In this document: in pieces, positions 11,048 through 41,214 of the stretch
Layout: every line of letters starts with the position of its first letter
Position numbering within the stretch: position 1 is the first letter of the stretch
Assembly (NCBI GenBank): GCA_964545515.1
Contig: CAZJFK010000001.1
Span: 48,544-112,543, forward strand
DNA from: an uncultured Candidatus Saccharibacteria bacterium
Lineage (GTDB): Bacteria > Patescibacteriota > Saccharimonadia > Saccharimonadales > Saccharimonadaceae
Length of the DNA stretch: 64,000 nt
Direction: 5' to 3'
Notes under the pieces: model-generated
Told to the model about the DNA's origin: nothing
The model's input: the letters and a program-made list of their open reading frames with translations, nothing else
Database searches by the model: none
Position numbers and translations under genes: made by a program

Positions 11048-12403
11048 ATGAGCAAACACGAACAACCACCAAAACATCAAGAATCTAGCGAAACTTCGGA
11101 TACACCTATTTATGACGCTATCCAAGAAGAAATACTAGCCAAAAATACACCCCAGCATTACAGTACTGCCGGTAAACATTCCGCCGACCGTATGTATTTT
11201 GGTGATGATACTCCTGGCAACAAACACGAATTAAAAGAAGATGGCAGCAACGCCGAATACAGCGTAGCAAGCATCATGAATCGTATCAAAAACGAAGATG
11301 AAGGTTTGTCTCGTTCGCTCGAAGGTTACGGATTTAGCAAACGTGAAGAAGAGGAAAAAGTCCAAGCGATCCTAAATAACGCAGAACTCACCCCAGAAGA
11401 CCGCGAAAACATGCTCAAAAGTGTTGAAAACGACAAGGTTGAAGCTTGGCGACAAAGTGTGCTCGACAAACGGGAAACAGGCATAGCTTCACCCGAAGAA
11501 GTCGAAGAAGAACTCCGCGCTGGCCCACCATGGCAACGGCAAAACACCCCTGCCCCCGCCGAAGCTCAGCCGGTCGACCAAGAAAATGAAGCCGATGAGC
11601 CAAAAACACCCGAAGCTCATGAAACTAGTAATGACAAAGAAGCCGAACGCGAATTTTTTGAAGCACTCGACAAAGAATTAGCCCTGCTAGTCAAAGATGG
11701 CAAAATTACCATCGAAGAAGCAGGCGCCAAGCGTATTCACGCTAGGCATATTCGCAACCTAGGTAGTCTATTTTCAGACGACCCAAGTGCCGATGCTCAT
11801 AAATTTGCGCTTGAAGGCATAGACTCCAAGCAAGAAAACCTAGATTCTACCCTAGGCGAGCTCAATGACGCCGTAAATAATCATGAAAACGAGACGAGTG
11901 GCGAAGTTGAAAGCGCTCTTAGCGATTTAGATGACGCCGTTAACGGCCCCGAAAAACACGAAACCAGTAGCGATGTCTTGGCCGCAATCGACGACCTAGA
12001 CACAGCGGTTAATCACCCCGAAAAATCAAATGACGTAGACGACACCGTCAATGACCTTGATGCTGCGGTAAATAACCCTACCGCAACAAGCGTCGATAAA
12101 TTAGTCGAAAGTAGCAAAGCAAATCCCGAGAAAAAACGTGGTTTACTAAGTAAAATCCGTGAACTAGCTAGCTTTTCTAAATTCCGCCGTGAAGGTCGTG
12201 TCAAGGCCAAGGAAACTATTCGTGAAAAACTAGCCCTGCGCAAAGAAACCAAAAAAGAAGCCAAAGAAGCAAGGGACATGGATTCATTCCTCGATAATCC
12301 TACACGATTTGGTTTTGCTCTACGCGAATGGGTTCGCCGTCACAAAGAAAAGCGATACAAAAAATTATCTCGTAGCGCTAGCCGACTCATGGAGGATAAG
12401 TAA
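11048..12403 (+). CDS. Hypothetical acidic protein with four ~20-aa DLDxAVN tandem repeats and a basic C-terminus
   Basis: Long ORF with no recognisable catalytic motif. Repeats ELNDAVNNHENE / DLDDAVNGPEKHE / DLDTAVNHPEKSN / DLDAAVNNPTAT fall at nt 11840..12076. TAATG overlap with the next ORF. Confidence 0.7.
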   Translation: MSKHEQPPKHQESSETSDTPIYDAIQEEILAKNTPQHYSTAGKHSADRMYFGDDTPGNKHELKEDGSNAEYSVASIMNRIKNEDEGLSRSLEGYGFSKREEEEKVQAILNNAELTPEDRENMLKSVENDKVEAWRQSVLDKRETGIASPEEVEEELRAGPPWQRQNTPAPAEAQPVDQENEADEPKTPEAHETSNDKEAEREFFEALDKELALLVKDGKITIEEAGAKRIHARHIRNLGSLFSDDPSADAHKFALEGIDSKQENLDSTLGELNDAVNNHENETSGEVESALSDLDDAVNGPEKHETSSDVLAAIDDLDTAVNHPEKSNDVDDTVNDLDAAVNNPTATSVDKLVESSKANPEKKRGLLSKIRELASFSKFRREGRVKAKETIREKLALRKETKKEAKEARDMDSFLDNPTRFGFALREWVRRHKEKRYKKLSRSASRLMEDK

Positions 12404-12711
12404 TGAATGACCAACAAATAATCACTCGCAAAGAAATCGAAGAACTAGACGTTGTACCAGTAGACTCCTTGGATGACGCCGTCAAAAAAGCCAACGACAG
12501 AGTTGATGAATTAATCGGAACCGAAGTAATAACATCACTCACGCCCGAGGACATTGAAGAGCTTGCCGACCTACAAGAATCCAGTAAAAGTACCGACGAA
12601 ATCGGTGACTGGATAGCCGAGCGAGTACCAGACTACGCAGAAATCATCGAAGACGCCCGCAACCTAGCCCTAGGTGATTTAGTCGACGAATATGACAAGG
12701 AGGAAGAATAA
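12403..12711 (+). CDS. Small acidic protein, paralogous to the 60590..61033 product (DUF5663-like as far as I recall)
   Basis: LTPEDIEELADLQESSKSTDEIGDWIAERVPDYAEIIEDA aligns with LSDQQLEEFEKIIDKDQGVIDAWIAVHAPNYQEDDIFKRM from the 60590 ORF. Translationally coupled on both sides. Confidence 0.65.
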   Translation: MNDQQIITRKEIEELDVVPVDSLDDAVKKANDRVDELIGTEVITSLTPEDIEELADLQESSKSTDEIGDWIAERVPDYAEIIEDARNLALGDLVDEYDKEEE

Positions 12712-22031: not shown

Positions 22032-22571
22032 ATGCTTATGAAACGTCGGTCAAATATAATTTTTCGTAGCGTCGCCAACAAAATATCCATGTGGGCAGGT
22101 AGTCCAGGGGTATTTCTAGGTGCTATCGTTATCGTCGGCATCTGGGCATCATCTGGTCCTAGTGCTGGATATTCAAACACTTGGCAGCTTGTTATCAATA
22201 CCAGCACGACAATCGTGACATTTCTGATGGTGTTCCTTATCCAAAATACCCAGAATCGCGATGGCAAAGCCGTGCAGCTCAAACTCGACGAGCTACTACG
22301 CGTTACCAAAGGTGCACGCACCACCTATGTAGGGCTTGAAGACCTCAGTGACGATGATCTCGAAGAACTCGAAAAAGAATTCAAACTCTTAGCCCAAAGC
22401 CCGGGTACAGTCCGTGCTCTCAATAAGCTCCACGCCAAAATTGAGGCCGAAAACGTCCGCAGGTCTAGCCTACGTGATGCCGCCGCTAGAATGTTTCGCT
22501 ACACTCAATCAGTCGTCCCACCCCTACCCAGCTCGGGCAACAAATCAATCGACAAAGTAGTCAAAAAATAA
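22032..22571 (+). CDS. Low-affinity iron permease family protein (Fet4-like, PF04120-type)
   Basis: FRSVANKISMWAGSPGVFLGAIVIVGIWASSGP...TWQLVINTSTTIVTFLMVFLIQNTQNRDGKAVQLKLDELLR. The second ATG (22038) is an alternative start. Confidence 0.8.
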   Translation: MLMKRRSNIIFRSVANKISMWAGSPGVFLGAIVIVGIWASSGPSAGYSNTWQLVINTSTTIVTFLMVFLIQNTQNRDGKAVQLKLDELLRVTKGARTTYVGLEDLSDDDLEELEKEFKLLAQSPGTVRALNKLHAKIEAENVRRSSLRDAAARMFRYTQSVVPPLPSSGNKSIDKVVKK

Positions 22572-22587
22572 TATCTTCATCACCCCT

Positions 22588-22616
22588 TTGACAATCTATG
22601 CGTTTTTTTGTACAAT
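22588..22616 (+). promoter_or_regulatory. rpmE promoter TTGACA-17-TACAAT
   Basis: TTGACA 22588..22593, 17-nt spacer, TACAAT 22611..22616. This places the ORF-track start 22608 inside the promoter. Confidence 0.6.
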
Positions 22617-22625
22617 AGTCAGGAT

Positions 22626-22955
22626 ATGAAAAGCAGTATACACCCAGAAACATACCGACCAGTCGTATTTAGCGACGAACAGGCCGGATTTGCGTTTTTG
22701 ACGCAGTCAACTGCTACTAGCACTGATACCATCAAGTGGGAAGACGGCAACGAATACCCCCTAATCAAGGTTCATGTTAGTAGCGCATCTCACCCGTTCT
22801 TTACTGGTGAAGAAAAGATCATCGACACCGAAGGTCGTGTCGATAGGTTCAAGGCTCGTGCCGCAGCCGCCGAGGCTCGCCGCGAACAGCTGGCAAACAA
22901 AGCCAAAAAAGCCAAGGCTAACGCCACCAAAAAAGCCGAGACCAAAGACAAATAG
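22626..22955 (+). CDS. rpmE: 50S ribosomal protein L31, type B (no CxxC zinc knuckle), with a Lys/Ala-rich C-terminal tail
   Basis: [32 protein letters not shown]...[29 protein letters not shown]. There is no Cys pair. Confidence 0.9.
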
Positions 22956-22970
22956 TCTCATACTAAACCA

Positions 22971-22997
22971 AAATAGACCCCCATACGGGGTCTATTT
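22971..22997. terminator. Intrinsic terminator between convergent rpmE and the orphan operon
   Basis: AAATAGACCCC-catac-GGGGTCTATTT followed by TG/T-rich sequence. Confidence 0.8.
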
Positions 22998-22999
22998 TG

Positions 23000-24592
23000 T
23001 TATCGCCTACGGAAACGATCTTTCTGGGTTAATTTATATCGCTTGGTACGATATGGACGTACAATATTCGTCAGTGGCGGTAAGTCTCTGAGGGATCTCG
23101 GACGCTTTTGTCCATAGCCAATCTCATAAATTATAGAGTTAATCGAATTCTCGAAATCATAATCAACAGACGAGTGAAATCCAGATATATGTGCGCCATG
23201 AGTACTCTTTGGTGACTCATGAGCCTGATAATACGTACGAACTGGTATTTTAATCTTTGAATATTCATCGAAATACACCTCAGGATCCCTGACTTCAAGG
23301 CCACGAGTGACACGATCACGATTCGCCGTCACTAATTGAACTTCTATCGATTTCTTAAACTTAGGAAATTGATCCATTAGAGACTCGGCAACGATAGACA
23401 ACTGCGAGCCGCTAATAGTCCAGTCATCAAGTAATACTATTTTCAAATCTTTCGCATCAGTAACAGTTATATCCGATATATCTGTAATTAATCTGCCACT
23501 ATACTTTTCGGCATCTTCGTCAGAAAACTGAGCTAGAATATTATCCAAAAGATACTCGTCACTCTTGACCCTACCACCACCAGATTCGTAGCGTTTTGCA
23601 ATCTCACCGGCTAATACCAATATCTGCTGATCCGGATTATGATCAAGGAGTGCTCTCCAATAGGTGGCTATACCCCCGATGGCTTCTTTATATTCTTTGC
23701 GACCAATAAAAGTTAGATTTTCCTGTATACGCTGTGCCTTTTTGGACGTGTTATAATCCGCACTGAGTAACTTGCCGTACTCAATCGCTGTATCAAGGAA
23801 TTTGTTTAATCCAACTAGCATCTGATGCTCGGTCATAGACACTCGTTCTTCTCTGAGTATACGACCGTATCTATCACGTACGGGTCTTTTGTAACTAATA
23901 CGATTTTTGCGACTCTTGTCTTTGACCTGGTCTTTGAATCTTGGTGGCACCTTGACGGCATGATCAACTTCCATGCGCTCAATTAATTCATCGGGAGTTA
24001 GCTCCGCCTCTGGTTCCAGGGGCTCAATGGCAATATCATAGGAAGCTTCAGCTTCGTCCTGTTCTATCCTAGGATCACGCCTACGCCCCTTCATAGATGC
24101 AATAGTCTGCGAAGAACTAGGGGCCCACTCCTGAATAGTGTTAAACATCATGTCAGAAATAGATGAGTGAGATTTAGTATGTTTCACCTCCCCCAGAAGC
24201 TCCATTTCCCAATTCGCGAGTGGTGGTTCTATGTATTCACTAGCAGGCTCTGGATGTATGTATTGACTCATCAAGCTACTGAGAGCCTTTTCGCCCATAG
24301 CATGCTGTAATGAGTTTTCATGATAATGAGGCTTGATTATATCTTTGGTTTCGTTTTGATATAGAGACTTAGCCCAAGCAATGTAATTCGAGCTAAAACC
24401 AGATTCTTTTAAATGTTTCAGATGTTCTTCTACGCCAAAATATAAATCATTAGCAGCATATGCCTGCTCTTCTAACGCATACTCATCTGGCTTTTCATCA
24501 AGTGGATTTATATGAGCAGGATAAGCGATATGCGAATAAGGTGGCTGAGACTCATCCGAGTGTTGATTATCTAATTTAATAAATTCCGACAT
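23000..24592 (-). CDS. Hypothetical 530-aa protein with a C-terminal PRTase-like (PRPP-loop) domain
   Basis: KIVLLDDWTISGSQL (nt 23402..23443) fits the type I phosphoribosyltransferase PRPP loop (four hydrophobic residues, D-D, x-T-x-S-G-x). The N-terminal ~290 aa is charged and unrecognisable. The C-terminus is basic. Confidence 0.7.
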   Translation of the reverse strand: MSEFIKLDNQHSDESQPPYSHIAYPAHINPLDEKPDEYALEEQAYAANDLYFGVEEHLKHLKESGFSSNYIAWAKSLYQNETKDIIKPHYHENSLQHAMGEKALSSLMSQYIHPEPASEYIEPPLANWEMELLGEVKHTKSHSSISDMMFNTIQEWAPSSSQTIASMKGRRRDPRIEQDEAEASYDIAIEPLEPEAELTPDELIERMEVDHAVKVPPRFKDQVKDKSRKNRISYKRPVRDRYGRILREERVSMTEHQMLVGLNKFLDTAIEYGKLLSADYNTSKKAQRIQENLTFIGRKEYKEAIGGIATYWRALLDHNPDQQILVLAGEIAKRYESGGGRVKSDEYLLDNILAQFSDEDAEKYSGRLITDISDITVTDAKDLKIVLLDDWTISGSQLSIVAESLMDQFPKFKKSIEVQLVTANRDRVTRGLEVRDPEVYFDEYSKIKIPVRTYYQAHESPKSTHGAHISGFHSSVDYDFENSINSIIYEIGYGQKRPRSLRDLPPLTNIVRPYRTKRYKLTQKDRFRRR

Positions 24593-24607
24593 TTCGTTCT
24601 ACTCTAC

Positions 24608-25540
24608 CTAACGAATATGTGGCACCATAAGATGACGATATTGGTCCGGGTCCTGCAAGAATTCGTCTAGAGCTTTCACATCTTGATCCAAATTATTACT
24701 AGGCGGTTGATCTAGCTCTGATACATAATCACCAAACGCCATAGCTGCATATTTACGCTTCATGAGCTCAGCTGATTCATAGGCATCCTCGCCTTCGCGC
24801 ATCTCTGGCACCATATTACCGGTCGCCGTATCGCGCACGAGGCGCGACGGAGAGCTGGTAGTACCGGAAAATGTGTCTTCTAGGAAATGAACCGCCGGAT
24901 TGCCAGAGATACCTCGTGATAGTGCGTGCAAAAATTTATCCTGCCCATCATGAATATAGCCAGGTATATTTGGGTTGACTGATATCATATAGCGTAGTTC
25001 GGAGTGCGGTAAGGCCTTTTTTAATTCAGGTTCAATGCTGCCATACATACCAATATCAGCCACCAACGTAGGCTTTTCGCTATCCATACCGAGAGTTTTA
25101 CTAATATAACTATGTAAATCGTGAGGGTCCGAATTGTACATAAGCTTGCGAGTAAAATACGCATAAGCTAAATCATCTGGTTTTGCTTCATAAGAATCTG
25201 GAAATTTATCGAGTAGCGCCTTGGCCGCTTCGTACGCCCCGAGGCCATCTCGAGCCGCAAATATAACCTGACCCCCGCCAGCATCATGTAATAGCTCGCT
25301 CGCAAAACCGGCCACCACTGGGGCTAGTTTTTCCTTGGAGCGTATATATAATTCAAACGTATTGGCGGCAGCTTCGTGACGCTCGACCTCAGGTATCTTG
25401 TCTAGTAGCGGATCGGTCATTATATCTTCTAGACGGTGATCATTGATAGATAGCTCAGTAACATCAGAGACAGTATCGCTCATCTCGTGAGCGTCGTGGG
25501 GATATTTAGGACTATTTATAATGTTATGTGCGATTTTCAT
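24608..25540 (-). CDS. Hypothetical 310-aa protein
   Basis: Motifs VIFAARDGLGAYEA and LVADIGMYGSIEPELKK faintly recall the RDG / D-x-G-x-x-G pattern of an uncharacterised HAD-like hydrolase family. This is unverified. It lies 15 nt upstream of the 530-aa ORF. Confidence 0.65.
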   Translation of the reverse strand: MKIAHNIINSPKYPHDAHEMSDTVSDVTELSINDHRLEDIMTDPLLDKIPEVERHEAAANTFELYIRSKEKLAPVVAGFASELLHDAGGGQVIFAARDGLGAYEAAKALLDKFPDSYEAKPDDLAYAYFTRKLMYNSDPHDLHSYISKTLGMDSEKPTLVADIGMYGSIEPELKKALPHSELRYMISVNPNIPGYIHDGQDKFLHALSRGISGNPAVHFLEDTFSGTTSSPSRLVRDTATGNMVPEMREGEDAYESAELMKRKYAAMAFGDYVSELDQPPSNNLDQDVKALDEFLQDPDQYRHLMVPHIR

Positions 25541-25565
25541 TTTTGTTTTAAATGCTTATACTTAA

Positions 25566-25594
25566 ATTCTATCAGAAAATAGCTATTTTGTCAA
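25566..25594 (-). promoter_or_regulatory. Consensus promoter of the orphan two-gene operon
   Basis: The minus strand reads TTGACA (25594..25589), 17 nt, TAGAAT (25571..25566), then a 25-nt A-rich leader without an obvious SD. Confidence 0.6.
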
Positions 25595-25651: not shown

Positions 25652-26722
25652 ATGCCCAAAATATCACTGAATACTGATGAACTGTTAGCCGAGAAAAAAG
25701 AGCTCGGCGAATTTTTGGCTACACCAGATGCATATAGCGACCCGTCGTTTACAGCCAAAAACAAGCGGTTTTCAGAGCTAGATTCTATCATATCAACAGC
25801 GTCTAGGCGGGATACGCTCGAAAAAAACCTCTTAGAGGCCAAAGAACTAGCTACTGGTAGCGACGAATTAGCCGAACTCGCCAAGAGCGAAATCACCGAC
25901 ATCGAGCAGCAGCTTGAATCTATAGACAATGAACTTTTCATCATGCTAGCACCCAAAGACCCCAATGACGACAAAAACGTCATCATGGAAATCCGTGCTG
26001 GTGCTGGTGGCGATGAAGCTAGCCTATTTGCCGCCGAAATGTACCGACTATATCTACGTTACTGCGAAACTCATGGACTCAAAACTGAGCTCATAAGCGA
26101 AAGTGCTAACGACACCGGTGGCTACAAAGAAGTCGTCTTCAAAATCAGTGGGGACTCCCCGTATTCACGACTCAAATTCGAGAGTGGCGTTCACCGTGTC
26201 CAGCGTGTACCAGCCACCGAATCACAAGGTCGAATCCATACTAGCACTATCACCGTAGCCGTACTACCCGAGGCTGAGGAAGCCGATATTGAAATTAATC
26301 CTGGCGATTTGCGCATAGACATCTATCGAGCTAGTGGCCACGGCGGCCAGAGTGTCAACACTACTGACAGTGCCGTGCGTATCACTCACGTACCAAGTGG
26401 ACTAGTAGTCACCAACCAAGACGAAAAATCGCAAATCAAAAACAAAGAAAAAGCCATGAGCGTCCTGCGCTCACGACTGTTGCAGCAAAAGATTGATGAA
26501 GAAAACGCCAAACTTACTGCTGAGCGCCGCGGACTAATCGGCACAGGCGATCGCAGTGAAAAAATTCGTACCTACAATTTCCCACAAGACCGTATAACAG
26601 ATCATCGTATCAAATACAGCCGGTCTAGTATTCCGGCTGCAATGAATGGCGATATCGACGATATCATCGAGAATTTACAGGCCTACGAGCGCGAACTTGC
26701 AGCCCAAGATGCCGGTCTGTAA
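25652..26722 (+). CDS. prfA: Peptide chain release factor 1
   Basis: PAT tripeptide ([15 protein letters not shown]) and GGQ ([20 protein letters not shown]). The extended -10 TGATATAAT (25631..25639) lies 12 nt from the ATG. Confidence 0.96.
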
Positions 26723-26728
26723 TAAACG

Positions 26729-27169
26729 TTAAGCTAATTTATCTTCTGATTTATCAGCTTGTTCATCGATATATTTACTTGATTTATCGATAAATTCAAT
26801 AGTTTTGTCAAAAAACCCATGGTTTTCTGTTAGTAGCATATCAGCCGTAGTCAAATCATAGGCTTTTTCTATCTCAGACCGTGAGACATCCTGTCCGTCG
26901 CTATATTTACGTGCAATAGACCGACCAGCGTTCTCGGCTATATCATGTATTCGTTTGGCATCGGGACCCTCTGGGTGCGCCTCGACATAAGACTCGAGGT
27001 ATTTGCCTACTCGCCTATATCGAGCAGCCTTGGTGCGATTCCAATCACCGGCGCTTGCCATATCATGTGCCTTATCAATATCCGATACGGCATCAGGAAA
27101 ATGCTCTAAATATTGAATATTATTATCTGTAACTGGTTGCGATTCTTGAACTAAATGATGATTTTTCAT
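26729..27169 (-). CDS. Hypothetical protein (146 aa), paralogue of the next ORF
   Basis: Shares DIDKAHDMASAGDWNRTKAARYRR / DLTTADMLLTENHG with NIDRAHAMAEHGDGFRTISARLRR / DLSEADFALTESEG of the 27178 ORF. Confidence 0.6.
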   Translation of the reverse strand: MKNHHLVQESQPVTDNNIQYLEHFPDAVSDIDKAHDMASAGDWNRTKAARYRRVGKYLESYVEAHPEGPDAKRIHDIAENAGRSIARKYSDGQDVSRSEIEKAYDLTTADMLLTENHGFFDKTIEFIDKSSKYIDEQADKSEDKLA

Positions 27170-27177
27170 AATACGGC

Positions 27178-27663
27178 CTATTTTACACCTACATCGTAAT
27201 GTTCGCCACCCGCATCTTCCATATTCTGCGCTAGTTCTTCGGTACGCTTCACTTTGCCCATAATTATCTGGTGGGCTCCCATGACGTCACCTTCACTTTC
27301 GGTTAGTGCAAAATCAGCCTCAGATAAATCATCGCGTAATTCGGCGATTTGTTTGTTATCTTTGTCGGCATCAGCCTTGCGAATAGCATCAACATAACGC
27401 TTCTGCACCTCATTTTTAGGATCCATAGTTACTGTCAGATCCAAAAGTATATTAGACGCTCGACGCAATCTAGCCGATATCGTCCTAAATCCATCACCGT
27501 GCTCGGCCATAGCATGAGCTCGGTCAATATTTTCTTCTGGTCCGGGTACGTGACCGCTATGGAACCTGGTGTGTTTTTCTGGCATGTATTTTCCTGTTTG
27601 TTTATTTTGGTGGATTACGGTTTGATTATACTTTAAAAAGTCTATTTTGTCAATAGTGCTCAT
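27178..27663 (-). CDS. Hypothetical protein (161 aa, or 135 aa from ATG 27585), paralogue of the previous ORF
   Basis: See the shared motifs above. The internal ATG 27585 (MPEKHTRFH) is preceded by CAGGAAAA and may be the real start. Confidence 0.6.
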   Translation of the reverse strand: MSTIDKIDFLKYNQTVIHQNKQTGKYMPEKHTRFHSGHVPGPEENIDRAHAMAEHGDGFRTISARLRRASNILLDLTVTMDPKNEVQKRYVDAIRKADADKDNKQIAELRDDLSEADFALTESEGDVMGAHQIIMGKVKRTEELAQNMEDAGGEHYDVGVK

Positions 27664-36936: not shown

Positions 36937-39900
36937 TTATACGTTTGCTCGGCTAGCTTTTAGCTTGCGGCGAGTGAATTCTTCGACTGCAATTACTACG
37001 ATAATCATAGGAATCCAGTAGTACCAGCAGACGCCTAGGAATTTGAAGCAACCATCAGTTTTGTGTGTTGCTGCACCAGCAACCTTGCTTTCTTTGGCAG
37101 TAGAACCGCCGTCATCATCTGATACGCTACCGGCATCGTCGGTAGCACCCTGCACATCACCATCGTCGACAGCTACATTGCTAAACCCATTGTTATCACC
37201 ATCTGAATCACCGGAATTAGAACCACCGTTATCCTGATTACCGTCGTCGTTGTTGTCAACAACTGGTTTTGTGTATGTGAAACTAAATGTCTTGGTAGTC
37301 ACATTGCCAGATCGGTCAGTGGCAGTTAGCGTAAACTTGTAGTCGCCCTCAACCGTTACAGTAAACAGTGGATTAAGCGCGCTTGGGTCGCTAACTACAT
37401 TGCTGTCGATATCAGGATTAGCGCTATCGCCTACCCATACGTAAGTGTTACCTGTTTGACTAGGGTCACCGTCTTCATCAGTCAGGCTTGGCTGAATAGT
37501 ACCAGCGCCAGTTACTACGCCAGTTTCATCACCAGTGATATTTGGACCAGTGTTGTCGATAGTAAAGCTGATTACCTTGGTAGAATTTGCGTCTTTGTTA
37601 CCATTATTACCACCTAGGGCGCTAGCTTCGTCACGAGCTTCAAGTTTGACAGTATATAGACCATCACCGTCAAGGGTAAATAACTCTTGGTCGCTAAACG
37701 TAGTTTGGTTATTTACCTGGCGTGGTGATACTACGGATGTAGTAATGTCAGTACCATCCTTGGTAACTGTTACATAGTAATGGAACACGTTATCATCTTG
37801 GATACTAGCTTTGATGTTTACAGGTCCTTGTAGGGTCTGTCCGTCTAGTGACGAACCAAGAGTCACAACAGGTGCCGTTGAGTCATATACCATGTACATC
37901 CAGTCGCTCCACTCACTTACGTTACCGGCTGCGTCTACGGCTTGTACGCGAAATGCGTCAGTACGATCTGTTGGTGGTAACCAGTTTTTGATTGTGCTAT
38001 CAACAGATGCGTCAGTACCGCTAATGGTAGTATGGTAGCCGCCAAGTGATTCGTAGTTGTAGTGATCGACGACTTCGCTGTTGCCATTTACATCAAGTGT
38101 TACAGGATTCCACTGTGGATACACAGCCTGGCGCTTGATAAGCACTGGTATAGAGCTTAGTGCGTAGGTGTGATTGTCGTTTACTGCAAACAGTTTCAAA
38201 CCATCTGGTTGTGCAGGATTAGTGTTGTCGATAGTCAAGGTAAATGGACCAGCTTCATTGCCAGCTGCATCGTATGCGTAGATCTTGTAAGTACCCTCAC
38301 CTAGCCAGCTTAGACCCTTGTAATTTTTGCCTGGCACAACGTTTGTCCACTCAGTTACAAACGTACCGTCTTCTTTGGTAACTTTTATCTTTGAGATATG
38401 ATCATCAGTTGCTTCAATTTCGGGTTTTTGCGCACTGCTAGCTGTCGCGCCGTCATTCAGATAGGTACCCGTCCTGTTGTCGGTATAGTTTCGATTAATC
38501 TCTACCTTAAGTACAGGAGCATCGTTGTCTATCGCGAATGTGCGAACAGCAGTAGCGGCAGTATGTCCAACGAGGTCTTTTGAACCAACCTTTAGTGTAT
38601 ATGCACCGTTTGGTAAGCCAGCTAAATCACAAGTAGTCGACCAGCTAGTTCCAGATACATTGTTGGTCTTCCATAAACAAGTATTGTTTGCAGGATGTTC
38701 ACCATTAGGACCAGTCAGGTGTACTACTACCGTGCTTAGATCTGCAGCATCTATAGCCTCTATAGTTACGGAAGTATTATTGTTAACTACGGCACCATTT
38801 GTAGATGGATTAGTTATCTTGACTACAGACTCTTCGTTATCAAGAGTGAATTTATAGGCATTTGTACTAGACTTACCAAAGCCACCGTCGGCTAGGTAGT
38901 AGTTAGAATCCTTATTACTTAGTGCGTCAACCAGCCTAAAGTACAAACTGATATCACTATAAGTCTTATTGGCAAAGAAACTAGGTACGTAGCTTGCGCT
39001 ACTAGTGTCGGTACGATTAGTTAGATCGATATGTGCCATGTATTTATTAGTTACAGCATCTACAAGCTCTACCTTAGTCCAGCCAGTTGCTGGCGGACCT
39101 GCGAATCCAGGGATACGGAAACCAATTTCAGATCCAACTAGTTTCAATGGCTCATCGGTAGTAAACGTTACGTCTAACTTCCCGCCATTTAATAGTGAGC
39201 TGGTATAGTTTACTCCGTTGTCCGTGATTATATTACTCAGAGTAACGTTTGTAGCCACTGGAGCAGTATTGTCAATTGATACGCTCTTGAACAAAGGAGT
39301 GTTGTGGTTCAACACACCATCTGCACCTTGCGCCAATATACAGTAGCTGCCGTCCAGAGAGCTCGTATCAAGTGTTGCCGTATAATGACCGTCCACTAGT
39401 GTGCCATTTACGGTATATGCGCTCGATAGTGCCGGAAGATTATTCTTACACTCACCAGAGCTATTCTGGTCTGCTAGCCAAAACTTAACACCTGCTACGC
39501 CACTAGCAACGTCGTTCACAATTGGATCATCGGCATCGACAGATATTTGCAAAGTCTTCGATACTAAGCTTGGCGCAACTAAGTTCGTCAGTACTGGTTT
39601 TTTGCCATCAACATGTAATTCTTGGTTATCAATGCGATAATAGTTTCCGATGTTATCGTATACACGGACAGCCAGTGCATAAACGCTGCCGTCTTGGACA
39701 TCGTTTACGTTACTACAAAGATCCTCAACATTGAAAGTTTTAGTAAGTGTGTTACCTACGAAATTAGCGTTAGTCCAGCCATTACATTCGTTCTTCTGAC
39801 TAAATTTACCGTTTGATTCTTTATTTAACCTAAATACAATCCATTTAACATTATCAACACCGCTACCAATACCATCATCAGGATTAGACACGGTGAATTT

Positions 39901-41121
39901 GACGTTATCACCGGGTCGTACATAACGAACACCGTCAATAAGCTTACCGCCAGTGACTGTTAAACTTGCAGTGGGTGCAGTACGGTCAACCATAAAGCTG
40001 TCGCTAGAACTAGTAGTAGTATTGCCGGCGTAATCAGTAAAGACCGCGATGAACTTATGTGTTCCATCTGATAATCCATCCCAAAGTGTCTGGTTATTCG
40101 TATTCTTTGTATCAAAATTCTTGTGATCGCTTGTTAGTGTCCACACGAGATTCTCTGGGGTTACTGAATCTATGTATACAGACTTAGTCGTCCCAACTTC
40201 AGATGTAATTGGACGGACGTGGAAGCCCTGATCAGTACCATAAACAGTCAGAGGCTGCAGCTGCCATGTGACAGTAGGAGCAGTGCTATCGATAGTAAAC
40301 TTCCAAGCATCACTCCATGGTCCTACATTACCAGAGGCATCAGTATATCGAACCTTCCAATAGTAATCACCATCCTCTAGGTCGTTGCCAGGAACTGGAG
40401 TTGAACTACCGACCCTACCGCTACCGTTGTAATTAGGAACGGTCCATACGTAACCGCCATCAGTCCAAACCTCATCTTTATGCTCTGCCTTAGTGACACC
40501 GTATTCAAATGTCACTGGACTAGCATCAGATGGTGCAGTCCAAGAAAAGCCCATATCCCTCAGCGTGCCCATGTTGAGAACGCTACCGTCAGTAGGACTT
40601 GGATTAGTGGCCTGACCGGGAGCAGTCGTGTCACTTGTTACAAGATTAACCGTCTCGTTGAGAACGCGCTCACCCTCTGTGGTGTTGATAGTGGCAGACA
40701 AGTTGATAGGAAAAGTTCCAACCGTATCTGATTTCAAGTAGAATGATCCGTCTACTTTATCCAAAAATGAAGAGTTAACGGTCTTAGACGAGTCCCAATT
40801 TGTCGAATCCGTCGAAACCTCAGCCCCACCAGTAGCCGTAGCTGTAATTGCAGCACTACCTAAACTTACGTGAAAATCATTCCACCCACCAAACAATGAT
40901 TTAAACTCTACAAATGTATATAGTGAGCCGACGCCGCTACCAGCTTCCGTATGAACGACACTAGCCGATGGCGTTAGTTGATATGTAGTAAGCGGCAATG
41001 CATTTGCTGTTTGTGCTGACACCAGTGGTGCTAATGAGCTTACTGCCAATACTGCCGACATAAAGCCGAGCGTGCTACGCTTAAATATATTTGAAATTCC
41101 CTTTGTCAGTCTTAAAGACAT
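36937..41121 (-). CDS. Giant (~1394 aa) secreted Ig-like-repeat surface protein with acidic linker and C-terminal TM anchor
   Basis: Start set at ATG 41121 (MSLRLTKGISNIFKRSTLGFMSAVLAVSSLAPLVSAQTANA, a signal peptide) with SD AAGGGAGAG. There are at least 10 domain boundaries marked by D-(N/S/R)-T-(A/G/N)-P (IDSTAPTV, VDRTAPTA, IDNTAPVA, IDNDAPVL, IDNTNPAQ, YDSTAPVV, IDNTGPNI). A D/N/G/S-rich linker is followed by WYYWIPMIIVVIAV and a basic tail. Confidence 0.85.
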   Translation of the reverse strand: MSLRLTKGISNIFKRSTLGFMSAVLAVSSLAPLVSAQTANALPLTTYQLTPSASVVHTEAGSGVGSLYTFVEFKSLFGGWNDFHVSLGSAAITATATGGAEVSTDSTNWDSSKTVNSSFLDKVDGSFYLKSDTVGTFPINLSATINTTEGERVLNETVNLVTSDTTAPGQATNPSPTDGSVLNMGTLRDMGFSWTAPSDASPVTFEYGVTKAEHKDEVWTDGGYVWTVPNYNGSGRVGSSTPVPGNDLEDGDYYWKVRYTDASGNVGPWSDAWKFTIDSTAPTVTWQLQPLTVYGTDQGFHVRPITSEVGTTKSVYIDSVTPENLVWTLTSDHKNFDTKNTNNQTLWDGLSDGTHKFIAVFTDYAGNTTTSSSDSFMVDRTAPTASLTVTGGKLIDGVRYVRPGDNVKFTVSNPDDGIGSGVDNVKWIVFRLNKESNGKFSQKNECNGWTNANFVGNTLTKTFNVEDLCSNVNDVQDGSVYALAVRVYDNIGNYYRIDNQELHVDGKKPVLTNLVAPSLVSKTLQISVDADDPIVNDVASGVAGVKFWLADQNSSGECKNNLPALSSAYTVNGTLVDGHYTATLDTSSLDGSYCILAQGADGVLNHNTPLFKSVSIDNTAPVATNVTLSNIITDNGVNYTSSLLNGGKLDVTFTTDEPLKLVGSEIGFRIPGFAGPPATGWTKVELVDAVTNKYMAHIDLTNRTDTSSASYVPSFFANKTYSDISLYFRLVDALSNKDSNYYLADGGFGKSSTNAYKFTLDNEESVVKITNPSTNGAVVNNNTSVTIEAIDAADLSTVVVHLTGPNGEHPANNTCLWKTNNVSGTSWSTTCDLAGLPNGAYTLKVGSKDLVGHTAATAVRTFAIDNDAPVLKVEINRNYTDNRTGTYLNDGATASSAQKPEIEATDDHISKIKVTKEDGTFVTEWTNVVPGKNYKGLSWLGEGTYKIYAYDAAGNEAGPFTLTIDNTNPAQPDGLKLFAVNDNHTYALSSIPVLIKRQAVYPQWNPVTLDVNGNSEVVDHYNYESLGGYHTTISGTDASVDSTIKNWLPPTDRTDAFRVQAVDAAGNVSEWSDWMYMVYDSTAPVVTLGSSLDGQTLQGPVNIKASIQDDNVFHYYVTVTKDGTDITTSVVSPRQVNNQTTFSDQELFTLDGDGLYTVKLEARDEASALGGNNGNKDANSTKVISFTIDNTGPNITGDETGVVTGAGTIQPSLTDEDGDPSQTGNTYVWVGDSANPDIDSNVVSDPSALNPLFTVTVEGDYKFTLTATDRSGNVTTKTFSFTYTKPVVDNNDDGNQDNGGSNSGDSDGDNNGFSNVAVDDGDVQGATDDAGSVSDDDGGSTAKESKVAGAATHKTDGCFKFLGVCWYYWIPMIIVVIAVEEFTRRKLKASRANV

Positions 41122-41185
41122 ATAAAACACTCTCTCCCTTACAGCACAGCCCACTCTGCACAACACACACTTTGTTATTGATACT

Positions 41186-41214
41186 ATACTACCACATATT
41201 GACAAATTTGTAAA
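41186..41214 (-). promoter_or_regulatory. Promoter of the giant surface-protein gene
   Basis: The minus strand reads TTTACA (41214..41209), 17 nt, TGG-TAGTAT (41191..41186). About 60-nt leader. Confidence 0.5.

Follow-up and report, generated by a model that had tools for sequence, protein, structure and literature searches.

The 64,000-nucleotide (nt) DNA analysed here (the window) comes from an uncultured Candidatus Saccharibacteria bacterium (contig CAZJFK010000001.1). It has a G+C content of about 44% and represents a housekeeping region on the chromosome of a member of the Saccharimonadales (Saccharibacteria, Patescibacteria), in which frr, tsf, rpsB, rpmE, prfA, prmC, secA, aminoacyl-tRNA synthetase genes, recJ, priA and infB were found. 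The unit under study consists of two reverse-strand genes between rpmE and prfA: gene A (24608..25540, −), an open reading frame (ORF) of 310 aa, and gene B (23000..24592, −), an ORF of 530 aa. A is a stand-alone gPRT/CriT-like domain, predicted to be a ribose-5-phosphate transferase that depends on phosphoribosyl pyrophosphate (PRPP), and B is assigned to the type I phosphoribosyltransferases (PRTases) as a PRTase-CE-like protein. We hold these fold and family assignments with good confidence.

Both ORFs and the distance of 15 nt between them are exactly as described in an earlier note on this DNA; the spacer (24593..24607, −) runs from the TAG stop codon of A to the start codon of B. A promoter-like site, TTGACA-17-TAGAAT with a TG extension (25566..25594, −), is located 25 nt upstream of the ATG of A and matches a sigma-70-like consensus, by which it is defined, at 11 of 12 positions. 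Only two sites in the 3.5 kb scanned reached 11/12, one ahead of gene A and one ahead of rpmE; as a class, promoter-like sites were not enriched there (8 observed versus 9.4 expected). Directly 3' of the TAA stop codon of B is a terminator-like hairpin (22969..22999, −) with a 13-bp stem, a dG of −22.1 kcal/mol and a z of −5.9 against shuffled sequences, and no T-run follows it. The neighbour on the B side, rpmE (22608..22955, +), is convergent with the unit, and the hairpin probably serves both genes; prfA (25652..26722, +) is the neighbour on the A side. A sequence scan found neither a promoter nor a terminator within the A-B interval, and co-transcription as a two-gene operon is therefore likely. 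The operon of the earlier note, with its promoter and its hairpin, is supported in this respect, and the description of the unit as an orphan is wrong. Both genes are real, with more than 130 homologous protein clusters for B and 47 for A (E ≤ 1e-3) and confident AlphaFold models, and the named homologues of both belong exclusively to Candidatus Saccharibacteria/Saccharimonadales records. The whole 64-kb window contained no Rfam family at the gathering threshold and no tRNA gene. A riboswitch or other RNA element at the unit, such as a PRPP riboswitch, was ruled out on zero Rfam matches.

Protein A matched no family in Pfam, NCBIfam, PADLOC or PHROG. Its AlphaFold model reached a predicted local distance difference test score (pLDDT) of 90.6, and a Foldseek search of this model against the PDB at E ≤ 1e-3 returned solely six Bcs3 chains (8a0m/8a0c), with E values from 2.6e-5 to 1.4e-4, a probability of 1.0, 367 to 389 aligned columns and a template-modelling (TM) score, TM(query), of 0.47 to 0.49. 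Bcs3 is the multi-enzyme protein of the Haemophilus influenzae type b capsule, and CriT is its ribose-5-phosphate transferase domain (PMC10299916). The fold search did not report which Bcs3 region was aligned to A, and the assignment to CriT was made via the 7SHG profile alignment together with the Bcs3 domain map. The family profile of A matched the ribofuranosyl transferase of Thermobacillus composti (7SHG, chain 7shg_A) at an E of 0.021, and at 7.3e-5 once distant relatives had been added. It aligned to the C-terminal (gPRT) half of that protein, residues 301 to 528, and the HMMER alignment paired FlARDG with FLSREGE and vDiGfyGsi with VDVGWKGTI. An exhaustive profile search yielded 622 relatives of A, and at least eight of the distant ones join a HAD domain at the N-terminus to an A-domain at the C-terminus. 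HAD plus gPRT is the architecture of the PRP-gPRT PRPP-dependent ribofuranosyltransferases (PMC11127046; PMC11231755). A is thereby similar in fold and profile to the gPRT domain of the dual-domain ribofuranosyltransferases (T. composti 7SHG; Klebsiella O4/O7) and to CriT of Bcs3 (8A0C/8A0M), and its distant relatives keep the HAD-gPRT architecture.

Characterised gPRT/CriT members bind PRPP-Mg and move ribofuranose-5-phosphate to an acceptor hydroxyl. A has the same motif order as these enzymes: R-D/E-G, T/S-R, an acidic residue with a Gly-rich cradle, and a Glu in the following helix. Loop 1 of CriT (S678, R679 and D680) binds the pyrophosphate beta-phosphate and the ribose (PMC10299916), and its proposed equivalent in A is ARDG at residues 96 to 99 after strand 1 (25244..25255, −), with R97 and D98 unchanged throughout alignments A2 and A4. 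S707, R708 and R712 of CriT serve in phosphate binding and ribose positioning (PMC10299916). T130-R131 of A, just after strand 2 (25148..25153, −), is proposed to correspond to S707/R708; R131 does not vary in alignment A2, and T130 is kept in at least 90%. In loop 3 of CriT, E818 and the cradle formed by residues 821 to 825 (T825) bind ribose and 5-phosphate (PMC10299916). The proposed counterpart in A is DIGMYGS, residues 162 to 168 after strand 3 (25037..25057, −), with D162 and G167 invariant and G164 kept in at least 90% of alignment A4; S168 is conserved as well. A motif of this DxGxxGS type was present in 46/47 close and 118/136 distant relatives. E874 is the proposed general base of CriT (PMC10299916), and HFLEDTFSG in the next helix of A, residues 218 to 226 (24863..24889, −), would provide the corresponding Glu together with a phosphate-binding Ser. 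E221 is invariant in alignment A4, D222 and G226 are kept in at least 90%, and the HFLED-type motif occurs in all 47 close relatives. Even in the broad alignment, R97, D98, D162, G167 and E221 are invariant. The conserved motifs of A fit the split acidic pair equivalent to a DD motif (D680 and E818 in CriT) and the phosphate-binding residues of gPRT/CriT. The model and the motifs suggest that A represents the gPRT/CriT superfamily in a minimal, stand-alone form whose PRPP site appears to be intact. It differs from the known members in being neither fused to nor located beside a PRP/HAD phosphatase, in its length of 310 versus about 445 residues in CriT, with reduced helical bundles, and in a sequence similarity that is visible at the profile level only.

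The earlier note had read RDG (residues 97 to 99) and DIGMYGS as faint signs of a HAD-like family. Both motifs are present and among the most conserved elements of A; they belong to a gPRT/CriT-type domain and not to a HAD domain. They do occur in proteins annotated as 'HAD superfamily hydrolase' (P0285), as would be expected if the unit encoded a HAD-like hydrolase and a PRTase-domain protein. In proteins of the P0285 type, however, HAD stands apart at the N-terminus, and both motifs fall within the C-terminal gPRT-like domain. Neither Pfam nor NCBIfam gave a HAD match to A at E ≤ 1, and its fold matches included no HAD structure. In these two databases no HAD domain was detected in A, in B or elsewhere in the operon, and HAD fusions were confined to distant relatives of A. 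HAD membership of A is rejected on these grounds, and a unit of a HAD-like hydrolase and a PRTase-domain protein is extremely unlikely. The faint resemblance pointed out in the earlier note is probably explained by the usual fusion of the gPRT-type domain to a HAD phosphatase, with frequent annotation as 'HAD hydrolase'. A paralogous relationship between A and B was ruled out (hhalign probability of 0.1%).

The relationship to gPRT/CriT raises the question of envelope glycopolymer synthesis, in which A would decorate a wall polysaccharide or a teichoic-acid-like polymer and B would be an accessory, a priming PRPP enzyme or unrelated. The characterised gPRT/CriT enzymes all act on glycans or ribitol-phosphate polymers (PMC10299916, PMC11127046). 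One distant relative of A carries a fusion with LicD, whose phosphotransferase family is characteristic of teichoic acid and capsule pathways, one HAD-A fusion adjoins an LGFP-repeat wall protein, and an LCP ligase gene is located about 5 kb from the unit in the window. However, the operon contains no glycosyltransferase, flippase, ATP-binding cassette (ABC) exporter or phosphatase, and in the known mechanism the 5-phosphate left in place without a PRP phosphatase would stop chain extension. A lies outside polysaccharide and capsule loci, its neighbours being rpmE, prfA and an iron permease gene, and the surroundings of A in the relatives' loci L004, L012 and L014 are likewise non-glycan. Unlike the known gPRT domains, A is paired or fused in Saccharibacteria with PRTase-CE or giant unknown proteins and not with glycan enzymes, and its distribution is patchy. 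A role in glycopolymer synthesis is considered unlikely.

Residues 1 to 184 of protein B (24041..24592, −) form a hypervariable, acidic N-terminal extension with a net charge of −16, which is covered by one close relative only (P0002) and is unalignable across the family. The start of the conserved core ranges from residue 57 to 645 in the B family, and the N-terminus from 0 to about 540 residues. Residues 185 to 292 (23717..24040, −) are a family-specific subdomain of a beta-hairpin and helices, which is conserved in alignment A1, confidently modelled and probably part of a 'hood' forming the acceptor site. The view that about 290 N-terminal residues are unrecognisable holds for residues 1 to 184 but not for residues 185 to 292, which are family-conserved and confidently folded. 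Residues 293 to 480 (23153..23716, −) were assigned by Foldseek and Pfam PF24390 as a type I PRTase core of the PRTase-CE-like type. The C-terminal segment, residues 481 to 530 (23003..23152, −), has a net charge of +10 and carries an invariant RPYR motif (R512 and Y514) and a basic tail. This tail, RPYRTKRYKLTQKDRFRRR, was present as noted earlier, with a net charge of +9 over the final 20 residues, and about 66% of the B relatives have a net charge of at least +3 in their final 25 residues.

The most conserved element of B is the PRPP-binding loop IVLLDDWTISGSQ, residues 385 to 397 (23402..23440, −), which combines a hydrophobic run, two acidic residues and a small-residue phosphate cradle. 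The longer stretch KIVLLDDWTISGSQL pointed out in the earlier note is present as residues 384 to 398; the range given for it was one codon short, the true one being 23399..23443. D390 and W391 are invariant, and D389, S394, G395 and Q397 are kept in at least 90% of the relatives. The conservation of the loop was confirmed by a regular-expression search, which found a DDWTISGxQ-type loop in 116/120 B relatives. Other invariant positions are S344 (in K343-S-D), R367, G471, and R512 and Y514 of RPYR, and H473 and D477 (in G-x-HSSVDYDF) are kept in at least 90%.

The AlphaFold model of B reached a pLDDT of 92.8 over residues 184 to 530 and contains the parallel beta-strands flanked by helices that characterise the type I PRTase fold. 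Foldseek matched it in the PDB to PyrR (4p80, E 3.2e-4) and to dozens of HPRTs (probability of 0.9 to 1.0, TM(target) of 0.4 to 0.53), in agreement with the claim of a C-terminal PRTase-like domain and PRPP loop in B. A search of PDB sequences with the B sequence profile found nothing. PRTase-CE (PF24390) was the only family detected for B at the sequence level in Pfam, and the DD motif of that family is kept. Of 46 B relatives, 19 reached PF24390 at E ≤ 0.01, the best at 3.6e-7; some relatives pass the Pfam threshold, and precomputed PF24390 matches exist for P0026, P0100, P0106, P0112, P0120 and others. A phage 'PRTase-CE domain-containing protein' was among the best viral fold matches of the model. 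Alongside it, the best in BFVD were two uncharacterised giant-virus proteins of 380 to 405 aa, A0A481Z462 (Pithovirus LCPAC102) and A0A1V0SB71 (Catovirus CTV1), aligned over 314 to 348 columns at an E of 1.4e-5. Because the PRTase core alone comprises about 190 residues, these proteins may share the extended architecture of B.

These results suggest that B is a divergent type I PRTase of the PRTase-CE type, with an intact PRPP loop, and it is predicted to use PRPP. The PRTase-CE family was defined on the polyvalent proteins of phages and plasmids, and its role was called 'somewhat enigmatic' (Iyer et al. 2017, PMC5512222). In contrast to those proteins, B is chromosomal in a candidate phyla radiation (CPR) bacterium and has the family-specific N-terminal subdomain, the C-terminal RPYR motif and the variable N-terminal extension. 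The context of phage or conjugative-element polyvalent proteins, including MuF proteins, was not found for B, whose neighbours are housekeeping genes and which had no PHROG match and no IMG/VR relative. A phage origin of the unit was ruled out on the absence of PHROG matches and IMG/VR relatives.

A and B were adjacent in 4/8 informative loci. The order A-then-B with a gap of 0 to 80 nt was found in the window and in L003/L004, L014 and L025; in L003/L004 the gap is 5 nt, and the neighbourhood is unrelated to that of the window. Contigs of 3603, 4536, 13535 and 2482 nt that are common to the match lists of both proteins suggest further A-B pairs, and a scan of GTDB genomes with a strict pattern for A gave three loci. 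The two domains also occur in single proteins. B-A fusions were found in P0168, P0172 and P0173, and A-PRTase-CE fusions in P0206 and P0213, which are encoded in tandem beside accA and queC in an unidentified bacterium. A metagenome-assembled genome (MAG) labelled Melainabacteria (CABHPA010000148.1; L009, 365..5669) encodes an ankyrin-PRTase-CE protein (828 aa), then a 238-aa unknown protein and then a HAD-A protein (630 aa). The HAD domain of the latter is of the S6PP/Cof type, and this three-part association includes the phosphatase that the saccharibacterial pair lacks. On this recurrent adjacency and fusion, joint action of A and B appears on the whole probable. About 4 kb upstream of the A-B pair of L003/L004 (586..2763), which belongs to another Saccharimonadales genome, an unusual purine-salvage fusion of 725 aa was found, in which an adenylosuccinate lyase (Lyase_1, ASL_C) is combined with a HAD hydrolase.

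In a close relative whose prfA is 85% identical, seven tandem B paralogs of 407 to 531 aa with unalignable N-termini lie between rpmE and rpsB (L001, 2996..14851; ENA ERZ27267672 k141_357372, also GCA_023262335.1 JALRBE010000022.1). Two genes for a protein of about 200 aa and a BtpA-family (PF03437) gene are scattered among the paralogs, and no A gene was present within this 19-kb locus. The small protein belongs to an acidic family of 191 to 217 aa encoded directly downstream of B in loci without A (L001, 8985..9590 and 12085..12660; L015, 9364..10017). It is shared between genomes (BLAST E of 5e-8 and 6e-5), had no Pfam match and could be an alternative partner, a chaperone or an immunity protein for B. 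A domains were also found at the extreme C-terminus of giant saccharibacterial proteins of 1100 to 1900 aa (L011/L028, 8001..13574, P0171 of 1857 aa; L022, L023 and L027), which had no signal peptide, no transmembrane segment and no Pfam match in the remainder. L021 (268..3981) has the giant combination as two separate genes, the first encoding 929 aa and the second, A, encoding 308 aa. The unknown proteins that flank A or B in relatives matched no Pfam family. Candidatus Protochlamydia naegleriophila (LN879502.1, near PNK_0682; L016, 1312..8977) encodes three tandem proteins with A-like domains, of 409, 932 and 658 aa, in an island of Pfam-less ORFans. A neighbouring gene shows faint similarity to ubiquitin hydrolases (UCH), and the whole has the appearance of an effector island in this amoeba symbiont.

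The core fold and the PRPP loop that B has in common with HPRT, PyrR and UPRT, the first two being closest in fold, are in line with a divergent purine or pyrimidine PRTase of housekeeping nucleotide salvage, to which A would be a co-transcribed passenger. B is found widely among Saccharibacteria, some of its abundant clusters comprising hundreds of sequences, and the genome of the lineage is reduced. However, B matched neither Pribosyltran (PF00156) nor the NCBIfam salvage models and, in contrast to HPRT, PyrR and UPRT, to which it has no detectable sequence similarity, it has a much larger hood, extra conserved subdomains, a hypervariable N-terminus, arrays of up to seven paralogs and fusions with gPRT-like domains. 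In the complete genome CP064995 (L012), where A occupies the same position, B was not detected in the surrounding 8 kb or so. Salvage is very unlikely as the role of the unit. Membership of B among housekeeping PRTases or ComFC was ruled out, there being no Pribosyltran or NCBIfam match. The absence of a characterised housekeeping family for A or B in Pfam and NCBIfam agrees with the earlier note. Plain nucleotide salvage, one of the roles it proposed, is unlikely in view of the seven-copy arrays with hypervariable N-termini and the patchy distribution, and a nucleotide- or PRPP-targeting effector, another of them, is possible.

PRTases also act in defence: Retron-Eco11 depletes PRPP (PMC12746101), and ShosT disrupts purine metabolism (PMC11961720). 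The top PADLOC match of B was the retron PRTase_III-A, at a weak E of 0.0042. B has in common with this PRTase and ShosT the type I core and a PRPP loop ending in SGxQ, its LLDDWTISGSQ resembling the Eco11 effector motif ILTDTIGSGNQ (PMC12746101), and it might act in the same way. The unit could then be a toxin-antitoxin or abortive-infection module, with B as a PRPP-depleting or purine-disrupting toxin that is neutralised by A or by the acidic protein of about 200 aa, a small helical protein that follows B in loci without A. However, the flanks contained no reverse transcriptase, no noncoding RNA (Rfam) and no DprA-like ShosA; the retron motif Gx14PNNxP was found in 0/120 B relatives, and B has no winged helix-turn-helix domain. 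Tandem arrays of seven copies are unusual among defence systems, no defence island or mobile genes surround the unit, and the intact catalytic-type motifs of A fit an enzyme better than an inhibitor. A module of this kind is quite unlikely. Membership of B in the retron or ShosTA systems was ruled out because their partners and motifs are missing.

We lean slightly towards reading the unit as a pair of different predicted PRPP-dependent phosphoribosyl transferases that act jointly and have an accessory role in host interaction or conflict. In this scheme, B would use PRPP to phosphoribosylate a nucleophile (a small base-like compound or a macromolecular site) or would merely consume PRPP. The nucleophile would be bound by the enlarged hood and the N-terminal region, and the hypervariable acidic extension probably sets the target or partner. 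A would add ribose-5-phosphate to a hydroxyl of the same acceptor or of the product of B. Because no HAD phosphatase is present, the product may keep its 5-phosphate or 5-phosphates. Core nucleotide salvage or ordinary glycan synthesis is probably not the role. Taken by itself, the accessory role in host interaction or inter-genomic conflict is proposed tentatively. It is favoured because of the hypervariable N-termini and paralog arrays of B, the variation of the prfA-rpmE-rpsB slot between genomes, the ankyrin and ORFan-island contexts in symbionts, the pedigree of PRTase-CE in conflict systems (PMC5512222), and the PRPP depletion or purine disruption caused by related defence PRTases (PMC12746101; PMC11961720).

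Several observations weigh against this reading. A occurs without B in L012, L007, L008 and L021; in L012, A is located in the same prfA-rpmE slot and is followed by an unrelated 321-aa ORFan. Conversely, B occurs without A in L001 and L015. The co-conservation proposed for the pair was found in part of the lineage, and either gene stands alone in other loci. The linkage is not obligatory, and A and B are therefore each able to act alone or with other partners. The TM score of A against Bcs3 (0.47) is only moderate, as are those of B against PRTases, and the residue equivalence between A and CriT was inferred from motif order, secondary structure and a partial hidden Markov model alignment. 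PF24390 matched B of the window at 13.6 bits (E 0.064), below the Pfam gathering threshold of 27 bits; since several relatives do match, B may represent a divergent subfamily bordering the PF24390 model. Neither A nor B has a signal peptide, a hydrophobic N-terminus or a transmembrane segment, and no secretion, mobile-element or known defence genes were found near the unit in the window, so that the case for an effector or conflict role is circumstantial. The IMG/VR viral contigs contained no member of either family, and the activities of both proteins are predictions.

A more specific possibility, which we regard as somewhat unlikely, is that the gPRT-like and PRTase-CE pair is an unrecognised PRPP-driven modification or signalling system of episymbiotic and intracellular bacteria (Saccharibacteria, Protochlamydia and the organism of the ankyrin-bearing MAG), in which ribose-5-phosphate is installed jointly on a target. 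A and B would place one or two ribose-5-phosphate units on this target. The product might be a di-ribosyl nucleotide of the pRib-AMP type, or alternatively a phosphoribosylated nucleic acid or protein of the host. Target selection would lie with the variable N-terminus of B or with the ankyrin repeats of the MAG protein, and an arms race with the host bacterium would account for the multi-copy arrays.

Further features were observed in the window. A gene of the low-affinity iron permease family (PF04120, E 5.6e-47; 22032..22571, +) is inserted between rpsB and rpmE and is not present in this slot in L001, L012 or L014. Because this and other inserts differ, the content of the prfA-rpmE-rpsB interval varies across all genomes examined. 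Between prfA and prmC, a further lineage-specific insertion in a housekeeping interval consists of two adjacent ORFs of 146 and 161 aa (26729..27169, −, and 27178..27663, −). The two proteins are mutually paralogous (32% identity over 122 aa, E 2.9e-7). PADLOC gave no match to them, and nothing in Pfam or NCBIfam was significant (E ≥ 0.07). A protein of 1422 aa (36937..41205, −) contains bacterial Ig-like domains (Big_13 and Big_3_3) and is probably a surface protein.

No description of a gPRT-like/PRTase-CE pairing was found in the searchable literature, and none on 'PRTase-CE' by name or linking Saccharibacteria to that family. Both domains belong to enzyme groups that were recognised recently and are little understood, the gPRT domain having been defined in 2022-23, for glycans only. 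The recurrent adjacency and fusion of the two domains, the absence of a phosphatase and the location outside glycan loci suggest PRPP-dependent chemistry with a non-glycan acceptor. With A, PRTase-CE has a defined partner, and this could be of use in finding the PRTase-CE substrate. Saccharibacteria are ultra-small parasites, obligate episymbionts that rely on their host bacterium for nucleotides. A multi-copy, fast-evolving family of PRPP enzymes in such episymbionts is a testable candidate for host manipulation or conflict.

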